This document shows positions 1 to 43,134 of a DNA stretch of 43,134 nt, one piece after another. This DNA is from a virus, in the IMG/VR virus record IMGVR_UViG_3300045988_126989, one strand, 5' to 3'. Positions within the stretch are counted from its first letter, which is position 1; every line of letters starts with the position of its first letter. Below the pieces are notes generated by a model. It searched no databases. It was given only the letters and a program-made list of their open reading frames with translations, and had not been told where the DNA came from. The translations under genes were made by a program, and so were the position numbers.

Positions 1-79
1 ATTATACCCCAATATACCCCAAGACAAATAAAAAAGCCTTTAAATAAAGGCTTAAAATTCGATGGAGCAGATGAGGGGA
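1..79. repeat. Terminal direct repeat, copy 1 (identical to 43056-43134)
   Basis: Base-for-base identity read directly. Contains tandem TATACCCCAA x2 (3-22) and a terminator hairpin. Confidence 0.95.
28..53 (-). terminator. Rho-independent terminator at the end of the late/lysis operon
   Basis: AAGCCTTT-aaat-AAAGGCTT (34-53), followed by a U-run only in minus-strand RNA. The second copy is at 43083-43108. Confidence 0.6.
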
Positions 80-15793: not shown

Positions 15794-16448
15794 ATAATGC
15801 GCTCACTTCCTTGCCATCATCACTTTGTACTTCTACCGGTGTACCGGCTTCATGGCTCACTTGGCTCACTTCACTAGCTTTTGGTGTAGGTAATTTTGGC
15901 GCAGTCGTAAAGAAACTAGTATAGTTTGTATCACCTTTTTTGCAGTCAATTTTTACCCATGCATGATCATCTTTTTCTACAGGAATAGCTGTAATATCCA
16001 TAGTTGTTGTATTTGGATCAATACTTTCTTCTCTTGTTTCACCTTCAACAGATGGGCGAGCAAATACCACTTTGAAGAACATATGTTTTGTCGCATTTTT
16101 GTCTCCTTCAAATTGGAACATTAAGCCTACGTTGTTTGGTAGAACGTTAGCGTCTTCAGCCAAGTTACCTTCCTCTGTTTCAATATTATTAAAAATCATT
16201 TTTTTAATTTCATCTTCCAAGTATGTCATTTCAATACTTCCGGAATATCCATTATTACTGTTTGTTGTAAAATATGCAGTGTTGTCTGCATAATATGTAT
16301 TTGTATCTCCTTCCGGATCTAGTGTTAATGATTTAGCACCTTTCCATGCTACAGGTGTACCATACGTAATATTTCCACCTTCTTCAGACTCAATAGGAAC
16401 TACATGTACATTTTTAATTCCATATTTAACTTTGTTTGTATCTGCCAT
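15792..16448 (-). CDS. Major tail protein (phi13-family-like)
   Basis: 218 aa. N-terminus MADTNKVKYGIKNVHVVPI..YGTPVAWKGAKSLTLDPEGD is typical of phi13-type major tail proteins. Position supports the call. Confidence 0.8.
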   Translation of the reverse strand: MADTNKVKYGIKNVHVVPIESEEGGNITYGTPVAWKGAKSLTLDPEGDTNTYYADNTAYFTTNSNNGYSGSIEMTYLEDEIKKMIFNNIETEEGNLAEDANVLPNNVGLMFQFEGDKNATKHMFFKVVFARPSVEGETREESIDPNTTTMDITAIPVEKDDHAWVKIDCKKGDTNYTSFFTTAPKLPTPKASEVSQVSHEAGTPVEVQSDDGKEVSAL

Positions 16449-25894: not shown

Positions 25895-26125
25895 ATGAAT
25901 AACAAAGAATATATTGAATTTACAGAAAAAAAACTAGATCGACTAAATGGATCTAGCTGCAAACCTTACACAATAACCAAACATTTAAACGGTTTATATG
26001 ATCTTAATTATGGTTTAGATACAATTGTGTGGATGCTTGAACCGCGCGAACTTTGGCTATTTGTAAATACTTTGTATACGTTGGATATTTTAGGAGGTCT
26101 TAAAAATGACAATATGGAAGCGTGA
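25895..26125 (+). CDS. Hypothetical protein (76 aa)
   Basis: ATG at 25895 lies 8 nt after GGAGG and is preferred over the track start at 25880. Confidence 0.55.
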   Translation: MNNKEYIEFTEKKLDRLNGSSCKPYTITKHLNGLYDLNYGLDTIVWMLEPRELWLFVNTLYTLDILGGLKNDNMEA

Positions 26126-26687
26126 GCGAACTCACTTTAACTACTATATTACAAATGAACGGAAACAACCCCACATTTATATTGAAGCGTTAGGAACTCC
26201 AAGCGCTTCAACTGAAAAAGTTTTAAAAGATCATGGTTTTAAATTTGATCATAATAAATGCATGTATGCAGCAGCTCAAACAAATGAATTAAGGCTTTTT
26301 GTCGCTCATGATCTTGACAAGCTTTTCAACTATGATATTCAAATATATTTCAATACAGAAGCGAAAAAAGAACTTTTCGCGCCTGATATCCAAGAAATAA
26401 AAGATATCTGTTATTTCTTCAAAATTTATAAATGCTATGTTGATATTTTAAACAAGGATCTTTTTAAGATTTGTAAACCAGGTTCAAAAAGCTTGCTAGC
26501 AACTTATAACACTTATTCAAAAACTATAGATGTTTTTAATAGAAACAAATTACAAGAAAGCTATATATACAAAAATGGTAAAATCAATAAAATGAGCGTT
26601 GAAAAAGCAGCGCCAAAGAAGAAGAAAAAAACAGCACTTACAGAACAACAAAAATTAAATGAAATGCTTGAAGCATTTCCATTTTAG
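26106..26687 (+). CDS. Hypothetical protein (193 aa) with a Lys-rich C-terminal segment
   Basis: AGGAGG 8 nt upstream. ..APKKKKKTALTEQQK.. No recognised domain. Confidence 0.6.
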   Translation: MTIWKRERTHFNYYITNERKQPHIYIEALGTPSASTEKVLKDHGFKFDHNKCMYAAAQTNELRLFVAHDLDKLFNYDIQIYFNTEAKKELFAPDIQEIKDICYFFKIYKCYVDILNKDLFKICKPGSKSLLATYNTYSKTIDVFNRNKLQESYIYKNGKINKMSVEKAAPKKKKKTALTEQQKLNEMLEAFPF

Positions 26688-26699
26688 GAGGTAAAGAAA

Positions 26700-27014
26700 A
26701 TGAAAAAAACTGTTAATGACATTAAAAATTTATGTAATTTATTGCAATATATGAGCCGTGAAGCCGGCTTATTCAGCAATGGATATATTAGTTATATATC
26801 AATTGGAAGATATGCAAAGTATGTTGATTTACATTTTATAAACGGATCTATTTACAACTTTGATTCATATACAAAAGCTTTTCTATATGATCAGCTTTTA
26901 AGATATGCAAAAAACCATCTAGAAAAATGGGATCAAAAAGAAAAAAGCAAGCGCGAAAAAAATCGCTTCAATCGCGCAAAAAGAGAACTTGAAAAAATTG
27001 AAAAGGACTTGTAA
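26700..27014 (+). CDS. Hypothetical protein (104 aa), basic coiled-coil tail
   Basis: AGGAGG RBS. Last gene before the terminator. Confidence 0.6.
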   Translation: MKKTVNDIKNLCNLLQYMSREAGLFSNGYISYISIGRYAKYVDLHFINGSIYNFDSYTKAFLYDQLLRYAKNHLEKWDQKEKSKREKNRFNRAKRELEKIEKDL

Positions 27015-27030
27015 AAAAGTCCTTTTTTTA
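27001..27030. terminator. Bidirectional terminator between the convergent plus-strand island and the early operon
   Basis: AAGGACTT-6nt-AAGTCCTT followed by T7. A-run upstream. Confidence 0.7.
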
Positions 27031-27035
27031 TACTT

Positions 27036-27586
27036 TCATTTTTTTATCTGCTTCTGGATCAGCTGTTTTTTAACCGGATTCGATGCGAAAAAGTTCATAA
27101 AAAGTTTAGTTTTAAACTCATATTCTTTTTGGTCCATTTCCTTTATATCCAAAACTCTTTTAAATATCACTATCGCGATAAAATTCGCAAACAAGTTTGC
27201 ATCTTTTTCTATTTCCTGATTCTCATAGTGTTCGTTGCTTGAATCCTTATAACTTTCAAATTCTTTTTTCCATATAGAAACGCTTCTTTCATCTATAGAA
27301 AACACTTTTTGATTCTTCTTATATACACATGCATATTGGTATAAATGTCTTATTTCATGTGCAAGATATATATATAAACTAAACTACTATCTATGGATGT
27401 ATTCAGGTTTACACAAATTACATTTTCTTTTGGGTATGATGTGCATATGCTTGTATCTTTTACTTGAAAAAGTTCTTTATTGACTGGTTTATGTTTAAGA
27501 TCATAAACCTTATCATTTGCTTTAAAGTAAACTTTTGGAATCTTTATATTTAATAGTGTGCATAGAAAACTTACATAATCATTCAT
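27036..27586 (-). pseudogene. ImmA/IrrE-type (Peptidase_M78-like) HExxH metalloprotease split by a frameshift in a TA repeat
   Basis: Track ORFs 27350-27586 and 27036-27305 join in another frame: ..SSLVYIY|LAHEIRHLYQ...NQEIEKDANLFANF (HExxH plus an E.E.AN.FA-like motif). Removing one TA from 27366-27376 restores one ORF of about 180 aa. Confidence 0.6.
27366..27376. repeat. (TA)5T dinucleotide tract at the frameshift point
   Basis: Minus strand reads TATATATATAT. A change of -2 or +1 nt fuses the two reading frames. Confidence 0.8.
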
Positions 27587-28242
27587 GCATCCATTATATC
27601 TGAAAAACTTTATTTTGAAAAACTTATTTATCTAGAATCAAAAAAACTTTTTCTAATTGTTCTTGAGAAGTTGGAAAAAACTTTTGAGATTCTTTTTCAT
27701 GCTTGCATAGAATCGAACCGTCAAAAAACTTTTCCAGCAACTGATAAAACTTTTCTTTCTTCACATAATAAACATAATTCACAGACACATCTTCATCATC
27801 ATGCGCATTGTATTCAAAAACTTTTTCAACCATCTTAGAACAAATAACACCAATCTGTACATTATCATACTTTATAAAAACTTCTTTATAAGAAAACCTA
27901 TTTTCGTCCATTTCATCACTCCTAAAAAACTTTCTACATATCAAACAATACTCTTAAAAACTTTGCATATTCTTTTTCTGATTTCAGATAAAACTTATTA
28001 CATCCATCCATGATATCTTCATAGTTGCAAGTCTCAATTTCATTATCCAAAAACTTTCTATATAAACTTTTGAATTGCGATTCACAAATATAATGCTCAG
28101 CCACTAGTATATCATTCTCATAATGACACCTTATAAACTTATAATGTGCCATATAAATACATGCAACATTATTTCCATATTGCACAAATAAACTTTCTAT
28201 ATCACGAATCAGAAAAAACTTTTTCACTTCTGATAAAAACTT
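27566..28242 (-). repeat. Dispersed same-orientation array of AAAACTT(T) (minus strand AAAGTTTT)
   Basis: 15 exact AAAACTT plus 3 ATAAACTT counted by eye in 677 bp, with irregular spacing. They occur in intergenic DNA and in at least two different reading frames. Confidence 0.75.
27624..27944 (-). CDS. Hypothetical protein (106 aa), weak paralog of 27934-28248
   Basis: Shares FIKYDNV.. / FVQYGNN.. and ..KFYQLLEKFFD / ..FKSLYRKFLD segments with its neighbour. Confidence 0.5.
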   Translation of the reverse strand: MICRKFFRSDEMDENRFSYKEVFIKYDNVQIGVICSKMVEKVFEYNAHDDEDVSVNYVYYVKKEKFYQLLEKFFDGSILCKHEKESQKFFPTSQEQLEKVFLILDK

Positions 28243-28248
28243 TCTCAC
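27934..28248 (-). CDS. Hypothetical protein (104 aa), weak paralog of 27624-27944
   Basis: See the paralog entry. Overlaps the downstream start by 11 nt. Confidence 0.5.
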   Translation of the reverse strand: MRKFLSEVKKFFLIRDIESLFVQYGNNVACIYMAHYKFIRCHYENDILVAEHYICESQFKSLYRKFLDNEIETCNYEDIMDGCNKFYLKSEKEYAKFLRVLFDM

Positions 28249-28261
28249 AATATCACTCCTA

Positions 28262-28606
28262 TCAACCAGCGGTCATTTCCGCATAAAAATCATAATAACA
28301 TTTACCTAAATACATCCGGCCATTATTGAAATGCGTTCTTAAATAAAACATTACTTTTTCAAAATTCTGCCGATCAAGCGCTATAATTCTTTTAAATCCA
28401 TCACGTCCATGAGCATCTTGTCTATATCTATACTTTATTCCATCGTTGACAATAAACTTATCAAACTTTTTATATTTTGTTTTGGTGAGATTATATTCAT
28501 AACCCCATCCTTCATCATTATGCAAAATTATAAACCATCTGTTATAGCACGGCATGATTTTTAAGTATCCAACACTTTCCATGATACCGTTCCTATTTAT
28601 CTGCAA
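28262..28606 (-). CDS. Hypothetical protein (114 aa)
   Basis: Intact ORF in the early operon. No motif recognised. Confidence 0.5.
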   Translation of the reverse strand: MQINRNGIMESVGYLKIMPCYNRWFIILHNDEGWGYEYNLTKTKYKKFDKFIVNDGIKYRYRQDAHGRDGFKRIIALDRQNFEKVMFYLRTHFNNGRMYLGKCYYDFYAEMTAG

Positions 28607-28868
28607 TCGTTTCTACAAAACAATTATAATAAACATATCTTTTCCCATCATAATCAAATTTTACATATCCACCATCATTTGTTTCAATATCAATTCTTCC
28701 CTCATAGCTAGCTATAATTTTTCCATCTGCTGTATACACATTGATTATTCTATTCAATCCACCATTCAAATCGGATTTTATATCAGTACCCCAACGATCC
28801 ATAGATGCACATCCAAATAAGGAAATGCTAATCATTCCAACCATTAATAATTTGTATAATTTATTCAT
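28593..28868 (-). CDS. Lipoprotein (91 aa), paralog of 29212-29613
   Basis: Start moved to ATG 28868 (AGAGGA RBS). Signal peptide MNKLYKLLMVGMISISLFGC (lipobox LFGC). Shared motif EGRIDIETNDGG. Confidence 0.65.
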   Translation of the reverse strand: MNKLYKLLMVGMISISLFGCASMDRWGTDIKSDLNGGLNRIINVYTADGKIIASYEGRIDIETNDGGYVKFDYDGKRYVYYNCFVETIADK

Positions 28869-28908
28869 TTTATTCCTCTTTTCTTTGACAACCCTATAAA
28901 GCATACAT

Positions 28909-29073
28909 TTATTCAAATTCAACAAATCTTGTATCTTTCACTTTCCCGCATTTCAAACACACAAGATACTGAGTCTCACCGCTGATACAATGAAACATCT
29001 CATTCTTTACACACCAAGTAAATTCATGCTTACAGAATAATCTTTTAAAAAACCATTTAATTTTGTTTATCAT
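28909..29073 (-). CDS. Small Cys-rich (zinc-ribbon-like) protein, 54 aa
   Basis: MINKIKWFFKRLFCKHEFTWCVKNEMFHCISGETQYLVCLKCGKVKDTRFVEFE. Purine-rich but weak RBS. Below the track cutoff. Confidence 0.3.
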   Translation of the reverse strand: MINKIKWFFKRLFCKHEFTWCVKNEMFHCISGETQYLVCLKCGKVKDTRFVEFE

Positions 29074-29211: not shown

Positions 29212-29613
29212 TTATTTATTTGTATCTTCTACGTTAATCAAGCCATGTTCAATCGTTTCTTTAGCAGGAAAGAATGTTATTTTATATCCATACGGATTTT
29301 CTTTTACCGAATCGGTCTGAATACTTGTATATGTAACATCTTTTGATAAATGTGCATAAAACAATTTATATTTATCTTTTCCAGTTTTAATCGTTACATT
29401 CAAATCGCCATCACTATCTGTTTCAATAGATATTTTTCCTTCAACAGAAAACAATGGTTCATTTGTTCTAGTATTTAATGCCACAACCTTTCTCGATATT
29501 TTAAAGTTGTTTGCATCCACTCTTAAATTATGATTAGCTGTATCTGATTCTTGGCATCCCGCCAAACCTAGACACATTGTCATTCCTAAAATTGCACATA
29601 ATATTTTTTTCAT
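29212..29613 (-). CDS. Lipoprotein (133 aa)
   Basis: MKKILCAILGMTMCLGLAGC (lipobox LAGC). Motif EGKISIETDSDGD is shared with 28593-28868. Confidence 0.7.
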   Translation of the reverse strand: MKKILCAILGMTMCLGLAGCQESDTANHNLRVDANNFKISRKVVALNTRTNEPLFSVEGKISIETDSDGDLNVTIKTGKDKYKLFYAHLSKDVTYTSIQTDSVKENPYGYKITFFPAKETIEHGLINVEDTNK

Positions 29614-36443: not shown

Positions 36444-37343
36444 CTACTTTCTTTTCGCATAACTCAATGATTCAAGATTCTGCTTTTTCATTTTCCTTGT
36501 TGTACGAACATAGATTCTTGTGGTTTCTAAACTAGAATGTCCAAGAATATCAGCCAATTCAGCAATCGCATTTTCACCATTCTGCATCAAATACTGAATC
36601 GCGAACAAATGCCTAAATGCATGAGGATGTACTTTACCAAGCTTAATTCCTCTGCACTTACCAGCGATCATTTTTAGATCCCTGGATAACACACGAGCGT
36701 TTACAGGACTTTTCTTATCAGAAGAAGTAAATATATACCCTTCTTCGATTTTGTTGTCCTTGCAATATTTTAGAAGCTCTCGCCGCAAGTCTGAACGTAG
36801 AATGATTCCTCTTCCTTTTCCTTTGTTCATAACATACACATTGTCATCCGTTACTGCTTCTACAGTGAAGAACTGTAATTCACTCAATCGAATGCCCGTA
36901 TATCCAAATACCTTCATGATCTCGTATAAATCCATACGATTGATTTCACGGGCTTTTTTCAATAGCCTTTGAAATTCATTAGGTTCTAGAATATCATCCA
37001 AAGAATCGTCTTTCTGGACTCTTACGTTCTTCAATAAGTTCTTTGAATAATATTTCTTTAGCTTAAGAAAATTAAAATCATCATCAGAATCAATGATTTC
37101 GCTATATTTAATAAATTTATTAATGATCACAATATAGTTGTTTACTGTACTGATTTTATAATCATGCAGCAGTTTATCTTTAACACCAACTATATCGGAC
37201 TTTTGTATTTCACCATCAGGCAATGAGTTAACAAACAAGATAGTTACATGTTTGTATTTACGAATGGTATTCTTACTTTTCTCATCCGCTGTTTCTTCTT
37301 CTATGAACCCGTCAATCTTTGTTTGTAACTCATCCTTAGTCAT
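36444..37343 (-). CDS. Second tyrosine recombinase (XerC/D-like, 299 aa)
   Basis: ..GIRLSEL.., ..HPHAFRHLFA.., ..LGHSSLETTRIYV.. (the R...HxxR...Y catalytic pattern). Confidence 0.85.
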   Translation of the reverse strand: MTKDELQTKIDGFIEEETADEKSKNTIRKYKHVTILFVNSLPDGEIQKSDIVGVKDKLLHDYKISTVNNYIVIINKFIKYSEIIDSDDDFNFLKLKKYYSKNLLKNVRVQKDDSLDDILEPNEFQRLLKKAREINRMDLYEIMKVFGYTGIRLSELQFFTVEAVTDDNVYVMNKGKGRGIILRSDLRRELLKYCKDNKIEEGYIFTSSDKKSPVNARVLSRDLKMIAGKCRGIKLGKVHPHAFRHLFAIQYLMQNGENAIAELADILGHSSLETTRIYVRTTRKMKKQNLESLSYAKRK

Positions 37344-38710: not shown

Positions 38711-38755
38711 TTTTTAATGTATAATCACAGTGTAAGCAGTTAAGAGGTGAAAATC

Positions 38756-39160
38756 GTGGAAGAACATATAGGGTCGAGAATATATAAAATACGTAAACAT
38801 TTTAATTTGAGTATGGAAAAATTCGGTAAACAAATAGGTATCTCAAAAGGTTCAATCAATAACATTGAAAAAGGAACTACCAATCCATCAAGCCAAACCA
38901 TCAATTCTATATGTCGAGAATTTAACGTTGACTATGTATGGTTAACTGAAGGTATTGGAGACGATATGTTCATTTCTATACCTGATTCAAAAATAGATCA
39001 GCTAATCGAAGATTATGGATTAAAGCCAGAAGATAAATGGCTTGTGCGAGGATACCTTGAAGCACCGCCGGATATAAAGCAACAAGTTGCAGATTATTTG
39101 TGGTCAATTGTAAATAGAGAATTAGCTAAAAGAGAAAAAGAAAAGAGTAACAAGAAATAA
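38756..39160 (+). CDS. CI-like repressor (XRE-family HTH, no S24 peptidase domain)
   Basis: GTG 38756 lies 8 nt after AAGAGG. ..LSMEKFGKQIGISKGSINNIEKGTTNPSSQTINSICREF.. Divergent from the early promoter. Confidence 0.8.
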   Translation: MEEHIGSRIYKIRKHFNLSMEKFGKQIGISKGSINNIEKGTTNPSSQTINSICREFNVDYVWLTEGIGDDMFISIPDSKIDQLIEDYGLKPEDKWLVRGYLEAPPDIKQQVADYLWSIVNRELAKREKEKSNKK

Positions 39161-39220: not shown

Positions 39221-39907
39221 ATGGAAAAAGTAGTTTATTATTGCCCTAATTGTGGAAAAACAGTTTCTAGATTAAAAGGAAATAAAGACAATTGTTCTAA
39301 CTGCAACGGGAAAATGGTTCAAACACCGATTGATGTAGAAAAATGGAAAGAGTTGTCTGATGATGAAAAAGCAAAAATCAAGTCAGAAATATCATTTTAT
39401 GGAATCCCTGAATATAGTGGAGAACCATTAAGTGCTTTAAAACATAGATATGACTTAATTCAAATTCAGAAGATTTCCGTCACTACAACAGACATAAAAC
39501 GTGATTATGTTATTATTGGGCCTGTATTTTATCAAATAAATGATGCAGGATCAGGAAAAATGATTTTTCAAAAGCAAAAAGAATATCGTAGTGTAATAAA
39601 TTCTTTAAAAGATCAAAATCAATTAGTGAATCAAAAAGCATCAATATCTGAAGCTTTAGGTACAATATCAAGTTTTTTTGAATTAATTAATACTGGTGAT
39701 ATATCTGCATCTACAAAAGATTTATTAGGAAATGGTCACACTCAATTTGATGAAGCTTTTTTTATTTCGGTAGAAGAATTAAAAAAGCGTGCATATTATA
39801 TGGGTGCAGATGCTGTCATTGGCATGAAAGAAGAACTAAATTTAGATACTAATGGATTTCAACATTTTTATATGCAAATGTATGGAACAGCTGTTAAATT
39901 TAAATAA
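39221..39907 (+). CDS. Zinc-ribbon plus YbjQ/DUF74-like domain protein, co-transcribed with the repressor
   Basis: YYCPNCGK..CSNCNGKM at the N-terminus. C-terminus ..RAYYMGADAVIGMKEELNLD..MQMYGTAVKF resembles the YbjQ fold. GGAGG RBS. No terminator after the cI-like gene. Confidence 0.6.
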   Translation: MEKVVYYCPNCGKTVSRLKGNKDNCSNCNGKMVQTPIDVEKWKELSDDEKAKIKSEISFYGIPEYSGEPLSALKHRYDLIQIQKISVTTTDIKRDYVIIGPVFYQINDAGSGKMIFQKQKEYRSVINSLKDQNQLVNQKASISEALGTISSFFELINTGDISASTKDLLGNGHTQFDEAFFISVEELKKRAYYMGADAVIGMKEELNLDTNGFQHFYMQMYGTAVKFK

Positions 39908-40606: not shown

Positions 40607-41371
40607 TTAACTAAATAAGCCTTTCTCTTTTTCAAGATTACTGAATGGAACTGTCATTATTCCATATTCTTTAAAACCTTGTACGATATCGCTTTTTATT
40701 GTTTGAGCATCGTTTAGAATTACAATGCATTTCGCATCGTTTCTAGTCTTTTCTATATCCAACCACGCAAATACTGTAGTAGTCAGACTATCTCTAGTAG
40801 GATTGTTGATTGCCTTGCATAAGCGCTCGTTGTGATTTTTATTTCTTTGAAAGCATAGATCAAATTTTTGAGTTAGTCCTGACCTTCCAACAAATGAAAC
40901 GTTATCCGAAAAATAAATATCATTTTTAATAAAAAAGTTTGTTACATCTTCCAAGAAATATGATGTAGTACGAACTGTATTTGTTAAATACATATCGTCA
41001 ATTTGAAGCATTGTCATTGCTAATTGATGCACTTTAGACGGTAAATCCTTCTCAGATGATAAAACAGTCATTTCATTATCATCACTTAAGGAAACCCCTG
41101 ACAACATGCAAATTTGTTCAATGGTTTTTCTTCTGCTGGATTTTTTATCAATATTAATGCCTGTATCAATAAGATTATTTATAATATATCCATCATCGGA
41201 AACCAAAAACATACCGTTTTCTTTTTTATCATCCACATAGCAAACTATTGAATCTCCTATGTGATCTTCAAAAGGAAGGACTATTTCATGTGCAGTTTCT
41301 ATTTTTTTTACAGATAAATTAGATTTTAAAAAATTCAAATAATTCTTTGCAAAGTCTTTTAAATTTTCCAT
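40607..41371 (-). CDS. DUF1828/DUF1829-like two-domain protein (254 aa), function unknown
   Basis: ..VLPFEDHIGDSIVCYV..LVSDDGYIINNL.. and ..FVGRSGLTQKFDLCF..KAINNP..VILND.. recall the DUF1828+DUF1829 architecture. This is from memory and is not verified. Confidence 0.55.
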   Translation of the reverse strand: MENLKDFAKNYLNFLKSNLSVKKIETAHEIVLPFEDHIGDSIVCYVDDKKENGMFLVSDDGYIINNLIDTGINIDKKSSRRKTIEQICMLSGVSLSDDNEMTVLSSEKDLPSKVHQLAMTMLQIDDMYLTNTVRTTSYFLEDVTNFFIKNDIYFSDNVSFVGRSGLTQKFDLCFQRNKNHNERLCKAINNPTRDSLTTTVFAWLDIEKTRNDAKCIVILNDAQTIKSDIVQGFKEYGIMTVPFSNLEKEKGLFS

Positions 41372-41398
41372 AACACCATTCCTCCCTACAAAAACATT

Positions 41399-41869
41399 TT
41401 AACAAAATCTAGGCATTTCCACCACGCTATTTTTGTTTAATTCAATTACTTTAAATTTTCTTAAAAATTCTACACAATAGTTTACCAAGTTAGGATCATT
41501 GATATCAAACTTTGTTGCATATTTATCTTGGTATTGTTCGGTAAATATATGTAGATGAGTTCCATAAATAATTTCACCGTCCGGATTTTTATGAGCGTGG
41601 TTATCAGGAACTACATCCAATCGCATCAAAGGTAATTTTGCTTCTTTATCTAAGGCAAGATATGTTAGTTTATCAGGTTGTCTGTTACCTCTACGCAAAA
41701 TAATTTTGAATTTATGTTTAAATTCTTCTATAAGATAAGCTTCATATTCATTTCCTTCAGCTGGATTTGGAATTTCAATTTGTTTTTCTCGTAATCCCTT
41801 AAATCCATCTAATAATTTTCTGATTTCTTCTTCTTTCATTTCCTCGTGCACCTCTATATTAATTTTCAT
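41399..41869 (-). CDS. Hypothetical protein (156 aa) with a His-rich motif
   Basis: ..DNHAHKNPDGEIIYGTHLHIF.. Lies between int and the DUF1828-like gene, with gaps of 22 and 27 nt (operon-like). Confidence 0.55.
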   Translation of the reverse strand: MKINIEVHEEMKEEEIRKLLDGFKGLREKQIEIPNPAEGNEYEAYLIEEFKHKFKIILRRGNRQPDKLTYLALDKEAKLPLMRLDVVPDNHAHKNPDGEIIYGTHLHIFTEQYQDKYATKFDINDPNLVNYCVEFLRKFKVIELNKNSVVEMPRFC

Positions 41870-41891: not shown

Positions 41892-42989
41892 TTACAACAA
41901 CTTATTCATCATATCTACAATGCTCTTGTCTTTTGTATCAAACCAGTGTGCATATGTATTGTGCAATGTTTCAACTGTATCTCCTAAGCGCTTGGCTATA
42001 TCAAAATCTGAAAATCCAGCACCTGCCATGTTATTAATTAGAAATGATGCGTGTGAATGTCTAAAATCATGGATTCTTATTTTAGGCAATCCATCATCTT
42101 TTTCTTTTGCCTTATTATATGCATCATCAAATCTTCTTTGCACTGTCTGAGGTGATATTGGTTTATAGTATCCAAATACAAATTTATCTTTTGTAAAATC
42201 ATCCCATTTAGAACATTCTAGAAACCATTCTCGAAGCATTTTAGACAATGTATTAGGCATTGTAATAGTTCTATAGCTATTGTTTGTTTTTGGCGGTGTA
42301 AGCCATTTATTAGGGTCTTTCTCTTTGTATCTATATGTTTTGTTGATGTCTATCGTTTGCTTCCTAAAATCAATGTCTTTCCATTGTAGGGCCATTGCTT
42401 CACCTTTTCGCAATCCCATATAGAATAAAACAGAATAAAAACATTTCATCATTTGTTCATTTACTTCTTCAATAAACAAATCAAAATCATATTGCTGCCA
42501 TATTGTCATTTCTTCTTTTCTTTCATTCAATCTAAGATCACGTTTTACATATGTCATTGGATTGGTTGGAATGTATTCAGAAGTAACACCAAATTTATAT
42601 AGCTTATTTAAAAAGAAATAGATTCTTGATACATATGCCTTTGAATATTTTTCATCAAATTTGTTGATCAAGTTTTGCATTTGCCTTTTATCTAGAAAAT
42701 CAATATCTTTCATTTCCTTAGAAAGGACATTGTACAAATATTCATCTGATTTTAGTGTTGATTCTTTTACATACTTTTTATTATATTCTTTAAAAGCTTT
42801 ATATAGTCTGTCAAAATTCATGTCTGATGGAAGCATAAAGAAATCTTTCCTGAATTCAACCTCAGCTTTTTGTGCTTCCCATTTAGAATCAAAACCACGC
42901 TTACGATATCGCTTTATACATTTACCATCTTTATATATTTTTCCGGCAAACATATATTTTCCTGTCTTCTTATCTAATTCCACTGCCAT
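41892..42989 (-). CDS. int: Tyrosine integrase with an N-terminal arm-binding-like domain
   Basis: 365 aa. ..LRKGEAMAL.., ..IRIHDFRHSHASFL.., ..GDTVETLHNTYAHW.. Adjacent to the terminal repeat. AAGAGGG RBS. Confidence 0.9.
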   Translation of the reverse strand: MAVELDKKTGKYMFAGKIYKDGKCIKRYRKRGFDSKWEAQKAEVEFRKDFFMLPSDMNFDRLYKAFKEYNKKYVKESTLKSDEYLYNVLSKEMKDIDFLDKRQMQNLINKFDEKYSKAYVSRIYFFLNKLYKFGVTSEYIPTNPMTYVKRDLRLNERKEEMTIWQQYDFDLFIEEVNEQMMKCFYSVLFYMGLRKGEAMALQWKDIDFRKQTIDINKTYRYKEKDPNKWLTPPKTNNSYRTITMPNTLSKMLREWFLECSKWDDFTKDKFVFGYYKPISPQTVQRRFDDAYNKAKEKDDGLPKIRIHDFRHSHASFLINNMAGAGFSDFDIAKRLGDTVETLHNTYAHWFDTKDKSIVDMMNKLL

Positions 42990-43041: not shown

Positions 43042-43064
43042 TATTTTAATATCAAATTATACCC
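43029..43064. repeat. 9-bp inverted repeat flanking an AT-rich 18-nt spacer (core-site or operator candidate)
   Basis: GGGTATAAT (43029-37) ... ATTATACCC (43056-64). The right arm is the first 9 nt of the terminal repeat. Confidence 0.6.
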
Positions 43065-43134
43065 CAATATACCCCAAGACAAATAAAAAAGCCTTTAAAT
43101 AAAGGCTTAAAATTCGATGGAGCAGATGAGGGGA
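43056..43134. repeat. Terminal direct repeat, copy 2
   Basis: Identical to 1-79. Confidence 0.95.

Follow-up and report, generated by a model that had tools for sequence, protein, structure and literature searches.

The window, that is, the whole stretch of DNA analyzed in this study, is the 43,134-nucleotide virus record IMGVR_UViG_3300045988_126989, a complete temperate phage genome of ~43 kb with a GC content of 32.7%. Between positions 27,036 and 27,586, its minus strand carries two annotated open reading frames (ORFs), which we confirmed to be a single broken gene for a putative metallopeptidase, hereafter called the protease gene (coordinates are listed in Table 1). The upstream ORF encodes 78 amino acid residues with the C-terminal sequence NLNTSIDSSLVYIYILHMK*, where the asterisk denotes a stop codon, and its last residues, ILHMK, are an out-of-frame tail. 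The second frame, shifted by -1 relative to the 5' part, reads FSLYIYLAHEIRHLYQYACVYKK...NQEIEKDANLFANFIAI...KQIKK* and lacks a separate start codon ahead of the catalytic motif. The two frames overlap by 34 nt at the tract TATATATATAT, a (TA)5T run, and they are joined by the removal of one TA unit or the addition of one nucleotide, giving a protein of 182 residues. A search of 5.8 billion proteins retrieved 41 relatives, the best of which (183 to 186 residues, 96–97% identity) span the whole repaired protein with 100% coverage. The repaired protein contains the motif HEIRH, the codons of which begin 7 nt past the TA tract, and further downstream the motif EIEKDANLFA. These results agree with the preliminary description of this DNA, in which the frames were joined inside the tract by the same changes, a product of about 180 residues was proposed, and an HExxH motif followed by E.E.AN.FA was recognized.

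The 11-nt tract occurs only once in the window, where 0.11 occurrences were expected, and at least one copy was found in 8 of 100 shuffled sequences. The same gene contains a second indel, which is absent from the preliminary description: comparison with the closest relatives showed that 1 nt has been lost before a run of seven A residues (approximately position 27,045), so that the protein ends in QIKK* three codons sooner than the QIKKMKV* of these relatives.

Tract alleles and gene loss among relatives

The intact homologs read continuously across the junction as ...SLVYIYLAHEIRH... or ...SLVYIYLAHEIRHLYQY..., and in their DNA (TA)4T stands at the position of (TA)5T in the window. For a census of alleles, we recovered 55 unique sequences of the gene from contigs of IMG/VR, metagenomes, and Logan. 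The (TA)4T run was present in 51 of them, three had a run shortened by in-frame substitutions, and one lineage (L007/L049) was frameshifted by (TA)3T; the relatives with in-frame interruptions of the run include L012 and L061. The (TA)3T allele was found in two backgrounds, ending in VYISSS* (P0279/L007) and VYISCT* (P0291), and (TA)6T gives VYIYISSS* (P0272; the DNA of L194 confirms this allele), while five units occur in the window and in L193. Natural relatives therefore cover tract lengths of 3, 4, 5, and 6 units, of which only four units are in frame, and the tract-length variation raised in the preliminary description does exist. Other lesions cluster at the same place, namely, a 13-bp tandem duplication that begins in the TA run (L004 to L006, from three assemblies; P0284, on five contigs), a 5-nt deletion immediately ahead of the run (P0290/P0294), and a CT deletion immediately after it (P0297). 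In total, at least eight independent lesions lie inside ~25 nt, showing that the TA run and its neighboring bases are a recurrent hotspot of slippage and mutation. Elsewhere, the gene is interrupted by the nonsense mutations Y51* and W105* or by frameshifts in A runs, and other copies have lost the active site through in-frame deletions or have undergone large deletions; in three unique alleles of relatives, a -1 change in a different A run cuts the C-terminus to give 174 residues. Purifying selection acts on the intact copies: over 1069 pairs, the median ratio of nonsynonymous to synonymous substitution rates (dN/dS) is 0.17. The window copy and its nearest relative give a ratio of ~1, which we do not interpret because so few changes underlie it (dN 0.020, dS 0.021).

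The frameshift is a genuine feature of the phage population. The exact 78-residue product is encoded on three contigs from two sources, JGI/IMG (43,134 bp, the window itself) and Logan. In L193, which comes from a separate run (ERR11569973) and shares only 91% identity with the window in this region, (TA)5T is combined with a different 3' half; because this half is another allele, the (TA)5T tract appears either to have recombined into, or to have arisen in, a second background. Relatives with 93% identity or more cover 14.5 kb of the window; in the structural genes of this part (17.9–23.1 kb, 5 kb in all), no indel of a length other than a multiple of three was found, and therefore the sequence is not generally error-prone. 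The "sequencing slip" offered in the preliminary description, according to which the true tract would be (TA)4T and the gene intact, is thus essentially excluded. An error of sequencing or assembly would fit the position of both indels in low-complexity runs, but it is very improbable in view of the shared truncated product, the recombinant background of L193, the clean structural genes, and the occurrence of different lesions at the same spot in other assemblies. We also considered programmed recoding, in which the full-length protein would be made from (TA)5T by ribosomes shifting to the -1 frame or by slippage of transcription along the TA run. The required shift is indeed -1 and the frames overlap, but the overlap contains neither an X XXY YYZ slippery heptamer nor a homopolymer. 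Nearly all relatives have a single frame, and the two-frame layout is confined to rare alleles and is therefore not conserved; we rejected this possibility as having next to no chance of being correct.

To survey loss of the gene, we retrieved 50 loci with flanks of 10 kb around the DnaC-like gene. The integrase and Xer-like recombinase (the latter with 96–99% identity) are full length in every locus that reaches them, and the ArpU-like regulator is essentially complete where covered. By contrast, the protease gene was intact in 21 of approximately 30 informative loci, carried point lesions in two, and had left no trace in seven. In these seven protease-less relatives, homology to the window ends at 27,618–27,624 and restarts at approximately 26,645–26,702. 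A segment of ~180–1060 nt, standing in for window positions 26,687–27,618, retains only the last codons of the protease gene, and six of the seven segments also encode a paralog of the upstream 106-residue protein (27,624–27,944; 34% identity, E 3e-12). The region behaves as a cassette-exchange site. Inactivation or deletion recurs specifically in the protease gene across this group of phages, with the remaining genome left intact, and therefore the phage does not require the gene for persistence or circularization.

The relatives also bear on a possible link between the protease and the phage repressor. Two repressor alleles, ~96–100% and ~63–67% identical to that of the window, occur in otherwise 90–99% similar phages (L143 to L192), which suggests swapping of immunity types; the adjacent Cro/Xis-like gene stays 85–96% identical. 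Because the protease is found with both alleles, which are only ~65% identical, its covariation with the repressor is uninformative in itself; the informative result is given by the protease-less relatives. In three of the seven (L150, L153, and L167), the integrase is followed by a single copy of the 79-bp sequence that is repeated at the two ends of the window, and then by the structural genes. This arrangement is the attP form of circular or concatemeric DNA, and in L150 and L167 the repressor is 99% identical to that of the window. Purifying selection on the intact copies together with loss in attP-form relatives indicates that the gene is functional when intact and dispensable for persistence and circularization.

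Sequence and fold relationships of the repaired protein

To place the repaired protein, we compared it with profile and structure databases. No Pfam family was matched above threshold, PF06114 was not matched even at E ≤ 1, NCBIfam and PADLOC gave no match, and in PHROGs only phrog_10499, a family of unknown function, was found. The repaired protein matched DUF6782 (PF20573, "putative metallopeptidase") over residues 51–94 with 19.6 bits (E 6e-4), below the gathering cutoff of 27, and only ~45 residues at HExxH align. An exhaustive profile search of 1.84 billion representatives yielded 94 clusters at 50% identity. In an alignment of 72 diverse relatives, the motif HE.RH..Q...W...Y...Q.IE.DA.AF is kept, with H76, E77, R79, H80, Q83, W105, Y112, Q123, E126, D128, A129, and F132 nearly invariant. 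The Tyr-Ile-Tyr codons that make up the TA tract are replaced in distant members by other residues without a repeat. When scanned singly, the members matched zincin families only, most commonly DUF6782 (45 of 72) and DUF3920 (PF13058; 22), followed by SprT-like and Peptidase_M78 families (8 each, the best M78 match having E 2.4e-4). Because 45 of the 72 relatives match DUF6782 and a few exceed its cutoff (P0055 with 30.3 bits and P0123 with 27.5 bits), the family lies at the edge of the DUF6782 model. Our literature searches found no paper mentioning DUF6782, so this match adds no function, and nothing relevant on Holdemanella prophages. A megablast of positions 26,000–29,000 against GenBank phages gave no match.

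The AlphaFold2 model built on a shallow alignment of 28 sequences had a predicted local distance difference test score (pLDDT) of 56 and was unusable. The model from the 72-sequence alignment (pLDDT 90.4) has strands within residues 18–60, a helix at 67–88 bearing H76, E77, and H80, and a helix at 124–141 bearing E126. This predicted layout of a β-sheet subdomain, an HExxH helix, and a later Glu helix is that of zincins of the gluzincin type, in which E126 would serve as the third zinc ligand. In a Foldseek search, no PDB entry was matched at E ≤ 1e-3; matches at E 0.01–0.3 were anthrax lethal factor, proabylysin, IrrE (3dti), and PrpR, and IrrE (E 0.086, query-normalized template modeling (TM) score 0.36) was placed below anthrax lethal factor. 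The best viral match in BFVD was a phage protein labeled "IrrE N-terminal-like" (E 5.6e-4, TM 0.40), which is weak, followed by uncharacterized phage proteins (e.g., of Sinorhizobium phage phiM12) and SprT-like proteins. A sequence profile made from close homologs alone found no match in the PDB, whereas the profile of the 72-sequence alignment reached the minigluzincin MJ1213 (E 5e-4, 54 residues). Minigluzincins (projannalysin MJ1213 and proabylysin; PDB 4qhf and 4jiu) are the only solved structures reached by the sequence profile. Shared features are a minimal soluble scaffold (~100–180 residues) and, within it, an edge β-strand that leads into the HExxH helix. Minigluzincins differ in being archaeal zymogens without a link to mobile elements, and their query-normalized TM score is ~0.31.

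The relationship to ImmA/IrrE/PprI proteins (MEROPS M78, PF06114, COG2856), such as ICEBs1 ImmA, Deinococcus IrrE, and Sfi21 orf122, needs closer attention. Like these, the repaired protein would be a small cytoplasmic zincin with HExxH and a helix resembling Glu-x-[ED]-A-N-x-F-A, its family occurs on temperate phages and integrative elements of Firmicutes, and there is weak similarity in profile and fold. However, the spacing from HExxH to the Glu is ~43 residues, compared with ~16 in the Sfi21 ImmA family, and ~25 extra residues with a conserved W/Y helix lie between the two motifs. As a reference for true ImmA proteins, we aligned Streptococcus phage Sfi21 orf122 and its relatives, all of which have PF06114. 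Comparison of the two families by hhalign gave a probability of 26.7%, and the 34 aligned columns do not extend beyond the edge strand and the HExxH helix, although many members of the Sfi21 orf122 family also match DUF6782. A homolog with 93% identity is named "ImmA/IrrE family metallo-endopeptidase" in UniRef, whereas NCBI lists a hypothetical protein (Holdemanella biformis, WP_118010753.1). CapP, an M78-like protease of the cyclic oligonucleotide-based antiphage signaling system (CBASS) with the partner HTH (helix-turn-helix) protein CapH, offers a further comparison: 13 of the 72 members match the PADLOC capP model weakly (best E 8e-6), but the window protein has no PADLOC match and no CapH-like partner or CBASS genes lie nearby. 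We consider the protein to be a zincin, probably a gluzincin, that borders DUF6782 and M78, and the membership in ImmA/IrrE (M78) proposed in the preliminary description did not hold, even though a comparable motif pair is present. The peptidase activity and zinc ligands of the intact protein are deduced from these likenesses.

Genome context

The lysogeny module (38.7–43.0 kb) comprises the repressor, a zinc-ribbon/YbjQ-like gene, DUF1828/1829 and DUF6978 genes, and the integrase (41,892–42,989). In agreement with the preliminary description, a profile scan identified the repressor as an XRE-type HTH protein without an S24 domain. Its downstream neighbor is not a protease but the zinc-ribbon/YbjQ-like gene, which was detected in about one-third of the related loci and represents variable cargo of the lysogeny module; the DUF1828/DUF1829 and DUF6978 genes may be moron or defense cargo. 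A leftward block runs from the Cro/Xis-like gene (38,501) down to a gene for a recombination directionality factor (RDF)-like protein (29,212) and also encodes an Xer-like recombinase, DnaD- and DnaC-like proteins, dUTPase, an HNH endonuclease, and an ArpU-like regulator. The RDF-like gene is missing from about half of the related loci. Beyond a gap of 287 nt follows a five-gene cluster for the lipoprotein, three small proteins, and the protease.

Table 1. Features of the protease gene and its genome context in the window
Feature	Position	Strand	Description
Metallopeptidase gene, 5' fragment	27350..27586	-	78 residues, N-terminal alpha/beta part (predicted); product also on other contigs
(TA)5T tract	27366..27376	-	One TA beyond the in-frame (TA)4T of intact homologs; frameshift site, slippage hotspot
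Metallopeptidase gene, 3' frame	27036..27383	-	Active-site helix (predicted) and remainder of the protein
HEIRH codons, H76-E77-x-x-H80 of the repaired protein	27345..27359	-	Putative zincin metal-binding/catalytic motif; predicted helix 67-88
EIEKDANLFA codons	27186..27215	-	E126, D128, A129, and F132 nearly invariant; predicted helix 124-141
Second lesion, 1 nt missing before the A7 run	27036..27047	-	From comparison with closest relatives
HTH repressor	38747-39160	+	137 residues; HTH_3/HTH_19, no S24 domain
Zinc-ribbon/YbjQ-like gene downstream of repressor	39221-39907	+	228 residues; N-terminal CxxC...CxxC, C-terminal YbjQ_1-like domain (PF01906)
DUF1828/DUF1829 protein and DUF6978 protein	40607-41869	-	254 residues (phrog_5059) and 156 residues; between repressor region and integrase
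Second tyrosine recombinase (XerC/XerD/XerA-like)	36444-37343	-	299 residues; early replication-side block, besides the integrase
RDF-like gene	29212-29613	-	phrog_478 ("recombination directionality factor"); Pfam Phage_VG64 in relatives
Upstream accessory cluster	27624..28925	-	DUF5052-like lipoprotein 28593-28925; small proteins of unknown function 28262-28606, 27934-28248, 27624-27944
Bidirectional intrinsic-terminator-like hairpin	27000..27027	.	Between protease gene and convergent plus-strand gene 26700-27014

The protease gene, which is the only ORF with HExxH in the window, is thus located 11 kb from the repressor on the opposite strand. This part of the genome is a variable accessory region and faces a cassette on the plus strand, which includes ArdA in one relative. 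The small genes upstream (27,624–28,606) include paralogs, and their set differs between relatives (L149, L153, L155, L167, and L172). In L151 (14,798–15,018) and L166 (12,004–12,226), a copy of ~220 nt of a tail segment, 92% identical to window positions 16,227–16,447, is displaced to a site between the genes for the lipoprotein and for the small accessory proteins. A scan of the window for terminators found four terminator-like sites compared with 0.7 expected. The scan for sigma-70 promoters gave 18 candidates against 18.4 expected, which is the chance level, and hence no conclusion on a promoter of the protease gene itself is drawn. In more distant relatives, the gene is a neighbor of an integrase gene (L051), belongs to an integrative element with FtsK/Rep (L113), or separates the replication module of another phage from its packaging module (L115). 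In none of these does it share an operon with an HTH gene, and the larger family members that were checked have no HTH fusion.

The 79-bp sequence forms an exact direct repeat at both ends of the window (1–79 and 43,056–43,134). Its reverse complement starts with TCCCCTCATCTGCTCCA, which resembles the 3' end of a tRNA, and continues with a terminator hairpin, and for these reasons the repeat resembles an att core; ARAGORN found no tRNA in the window. The repeat may be an attL/attR pair or the overlap of a circular assembly. One related contig is part of a metagenome-assembled genome labeled Solobacterium.

A probable loss-of-function allele and its alternatives

The locus is probably a natural loss-of-function allele of a dispensable accessory gene for a zincin-type metallopeptidase. 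The gene, encoding a presumably single-domain protein of ~183–185 residues, appears to be carried by a widespread group of temperate phages of the gut bacterium Holdemanella biformis. Its intact product would be composed of an N-terminal α/β subdomain, the helix with H76-E77-x-x-H80, and the later Q.IE.DA.AF helix with Glu126. We infer that slipped-strand mispairing added one TA unit to the Tyr-Ile-Tyr (TA)4T run 7 nt 5' of the HExxH codons; translation would then stop after 78 residues, and no catalytic residue would be made. The loss of 1 nt near the 3' end would be consistent with the decay of a gene that was already dead.

One possibility raised in the preliminary description is an induction switch. 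Here, an ImmA-like anti-repressor acting at a distance would cleave the XRE-type repressor, so that the (TA)5T allele would block or weaken induction until slippage brought back (TA)4T. This model draws on the resemblance of HExxH plus E.DAN.FA to the M78 signature, the subthreshold matches of family members to Peptidase_M78 and CapP, the cross-matching of true ImmA proteins to DUF6782, which is the best family of the window protein, and the IrrE and PrpR entries among the fold matches. The status of the gene as the only HExxH ORF, the repressor without S24, and the natural tract lengths of 3 to 6 units also speak for it, and disruption of immA is known to lower the activation of ImmAR-type prophages (PMC12637031). 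Nevertheless, we regard it as unlikely. The profile evidence falls short of PF06114 and NCBIfam, the hhalign match is confined to 34 columns, and the HExxH-to-Glu spacing differs. Similar folds are found in uncharacterized proteins of other phages. Canonical immR/immA pairs lie in tandem, as in ICEBs1 (PMC8960796), and orf127/orf122 of Sfi21 are an adjacent pair of repressor and ImmA, whereas here the two genes are 11 kb apart. The same type of protease accompanies two different repressor alleles, and neither an operon with an HTH gene nor an HTH fusion was found in the wider family. Most telling are the protease-less phages with a 99%-identical repressor that span the attP junction, which count against the proposed link to the repressor.

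The tract could alternatively be a contingency locus for a function other than induction, kept for reversible ON/OFF switching of a costly or defense-exposed protease, as in known simple sequence repeat (SSR) loci. Here too, a dinucleotide repeat inside an ORF flips the frame when its unit number changes, and its length is polymorphic among close relatives, with at least five independent changes in both directions (to 3, 5, and 6 units). The longer OFF tracts would be more mutable and could revert, and gene-specific loss combined with purifying selection on the intact copies suggests fluctuating selection. However, a (TA)4T run is short for the high-rate slippage of SSR phase variation. It is the modal allele, present in 51 of the 55 unique genes, and the rarity of OFF tract alleles among the recorded sequences argues against frequent switching. 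Irreversible lesions such as nonsense mutations and deletions are at least as common as tract-length alleles. The tract also simply encodes Tyr-Ile-Tyr in an AT-rich genome, and selective maintenance of the repeat is not evident, since distant members have none and in L012 and L061 it is interrupted in frame. We therefore give this explanation a rather small chance. A designed phase switch, as envisaged in the preliminary description, is unlikely given the scarcity of out-of-frame tract alleles and the lack of conservation of the repeat in the wider family. The run is better viewed as a slippage hotspot from which null alleles keep emerging than as a maintained switch.

Several points weigh against our interpretation of the locus as a simple loss-of-function allele. 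The protein is the sole zincin candidate in a phage whose repressor has no self-cleavage domain, and UniRef attaches the ImmA/IrrE label to its 93%-identical homolog. Recurrent nulls would also be expected from host-level selection against an induction gene, the tract range of 3 to 6 units exceeds what a plain pseudogene needs, and the attP-spanning contigs show circular or concatemeric DNA, not a measured induction phenotype. Alternatively, the family could be an unrecognized ImmA/IrrE-like branch acting in trans, from a distant accessory locus, on the phage repressor or on a regulator of the host or a competitor, with the many independent nulls at the TA run ahead of the catalytic motif reflecting selection on lysogens that silences induction, sometimes reversibly. 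We consider this to be doubtful; if true, the alleles would document, in nature and at the level of populations, how prophages are tamed through a single gene.

As a loss-of-function allele, the locus corrects an annotation in which two ORFs stand for one broken gene, and it cautions that the motif alone is no ground for naming such proteins ImmA/IrrE. It also documents an uncharacterized zincin family of ~94 clusters at 50% identity in phages and integrative elements of gut Firmicutes. In an abundant group of Holdemanella phages, one gene is repeatedly broken or deleted while its neighbors stay intact. Given this gene-specific pattern, a conditionally costly role, e.g., in induction control, anti-defense, or host takeover, is a good candidate for the function of the gene, and the recurrent lesions supply ready-made natural mutants.

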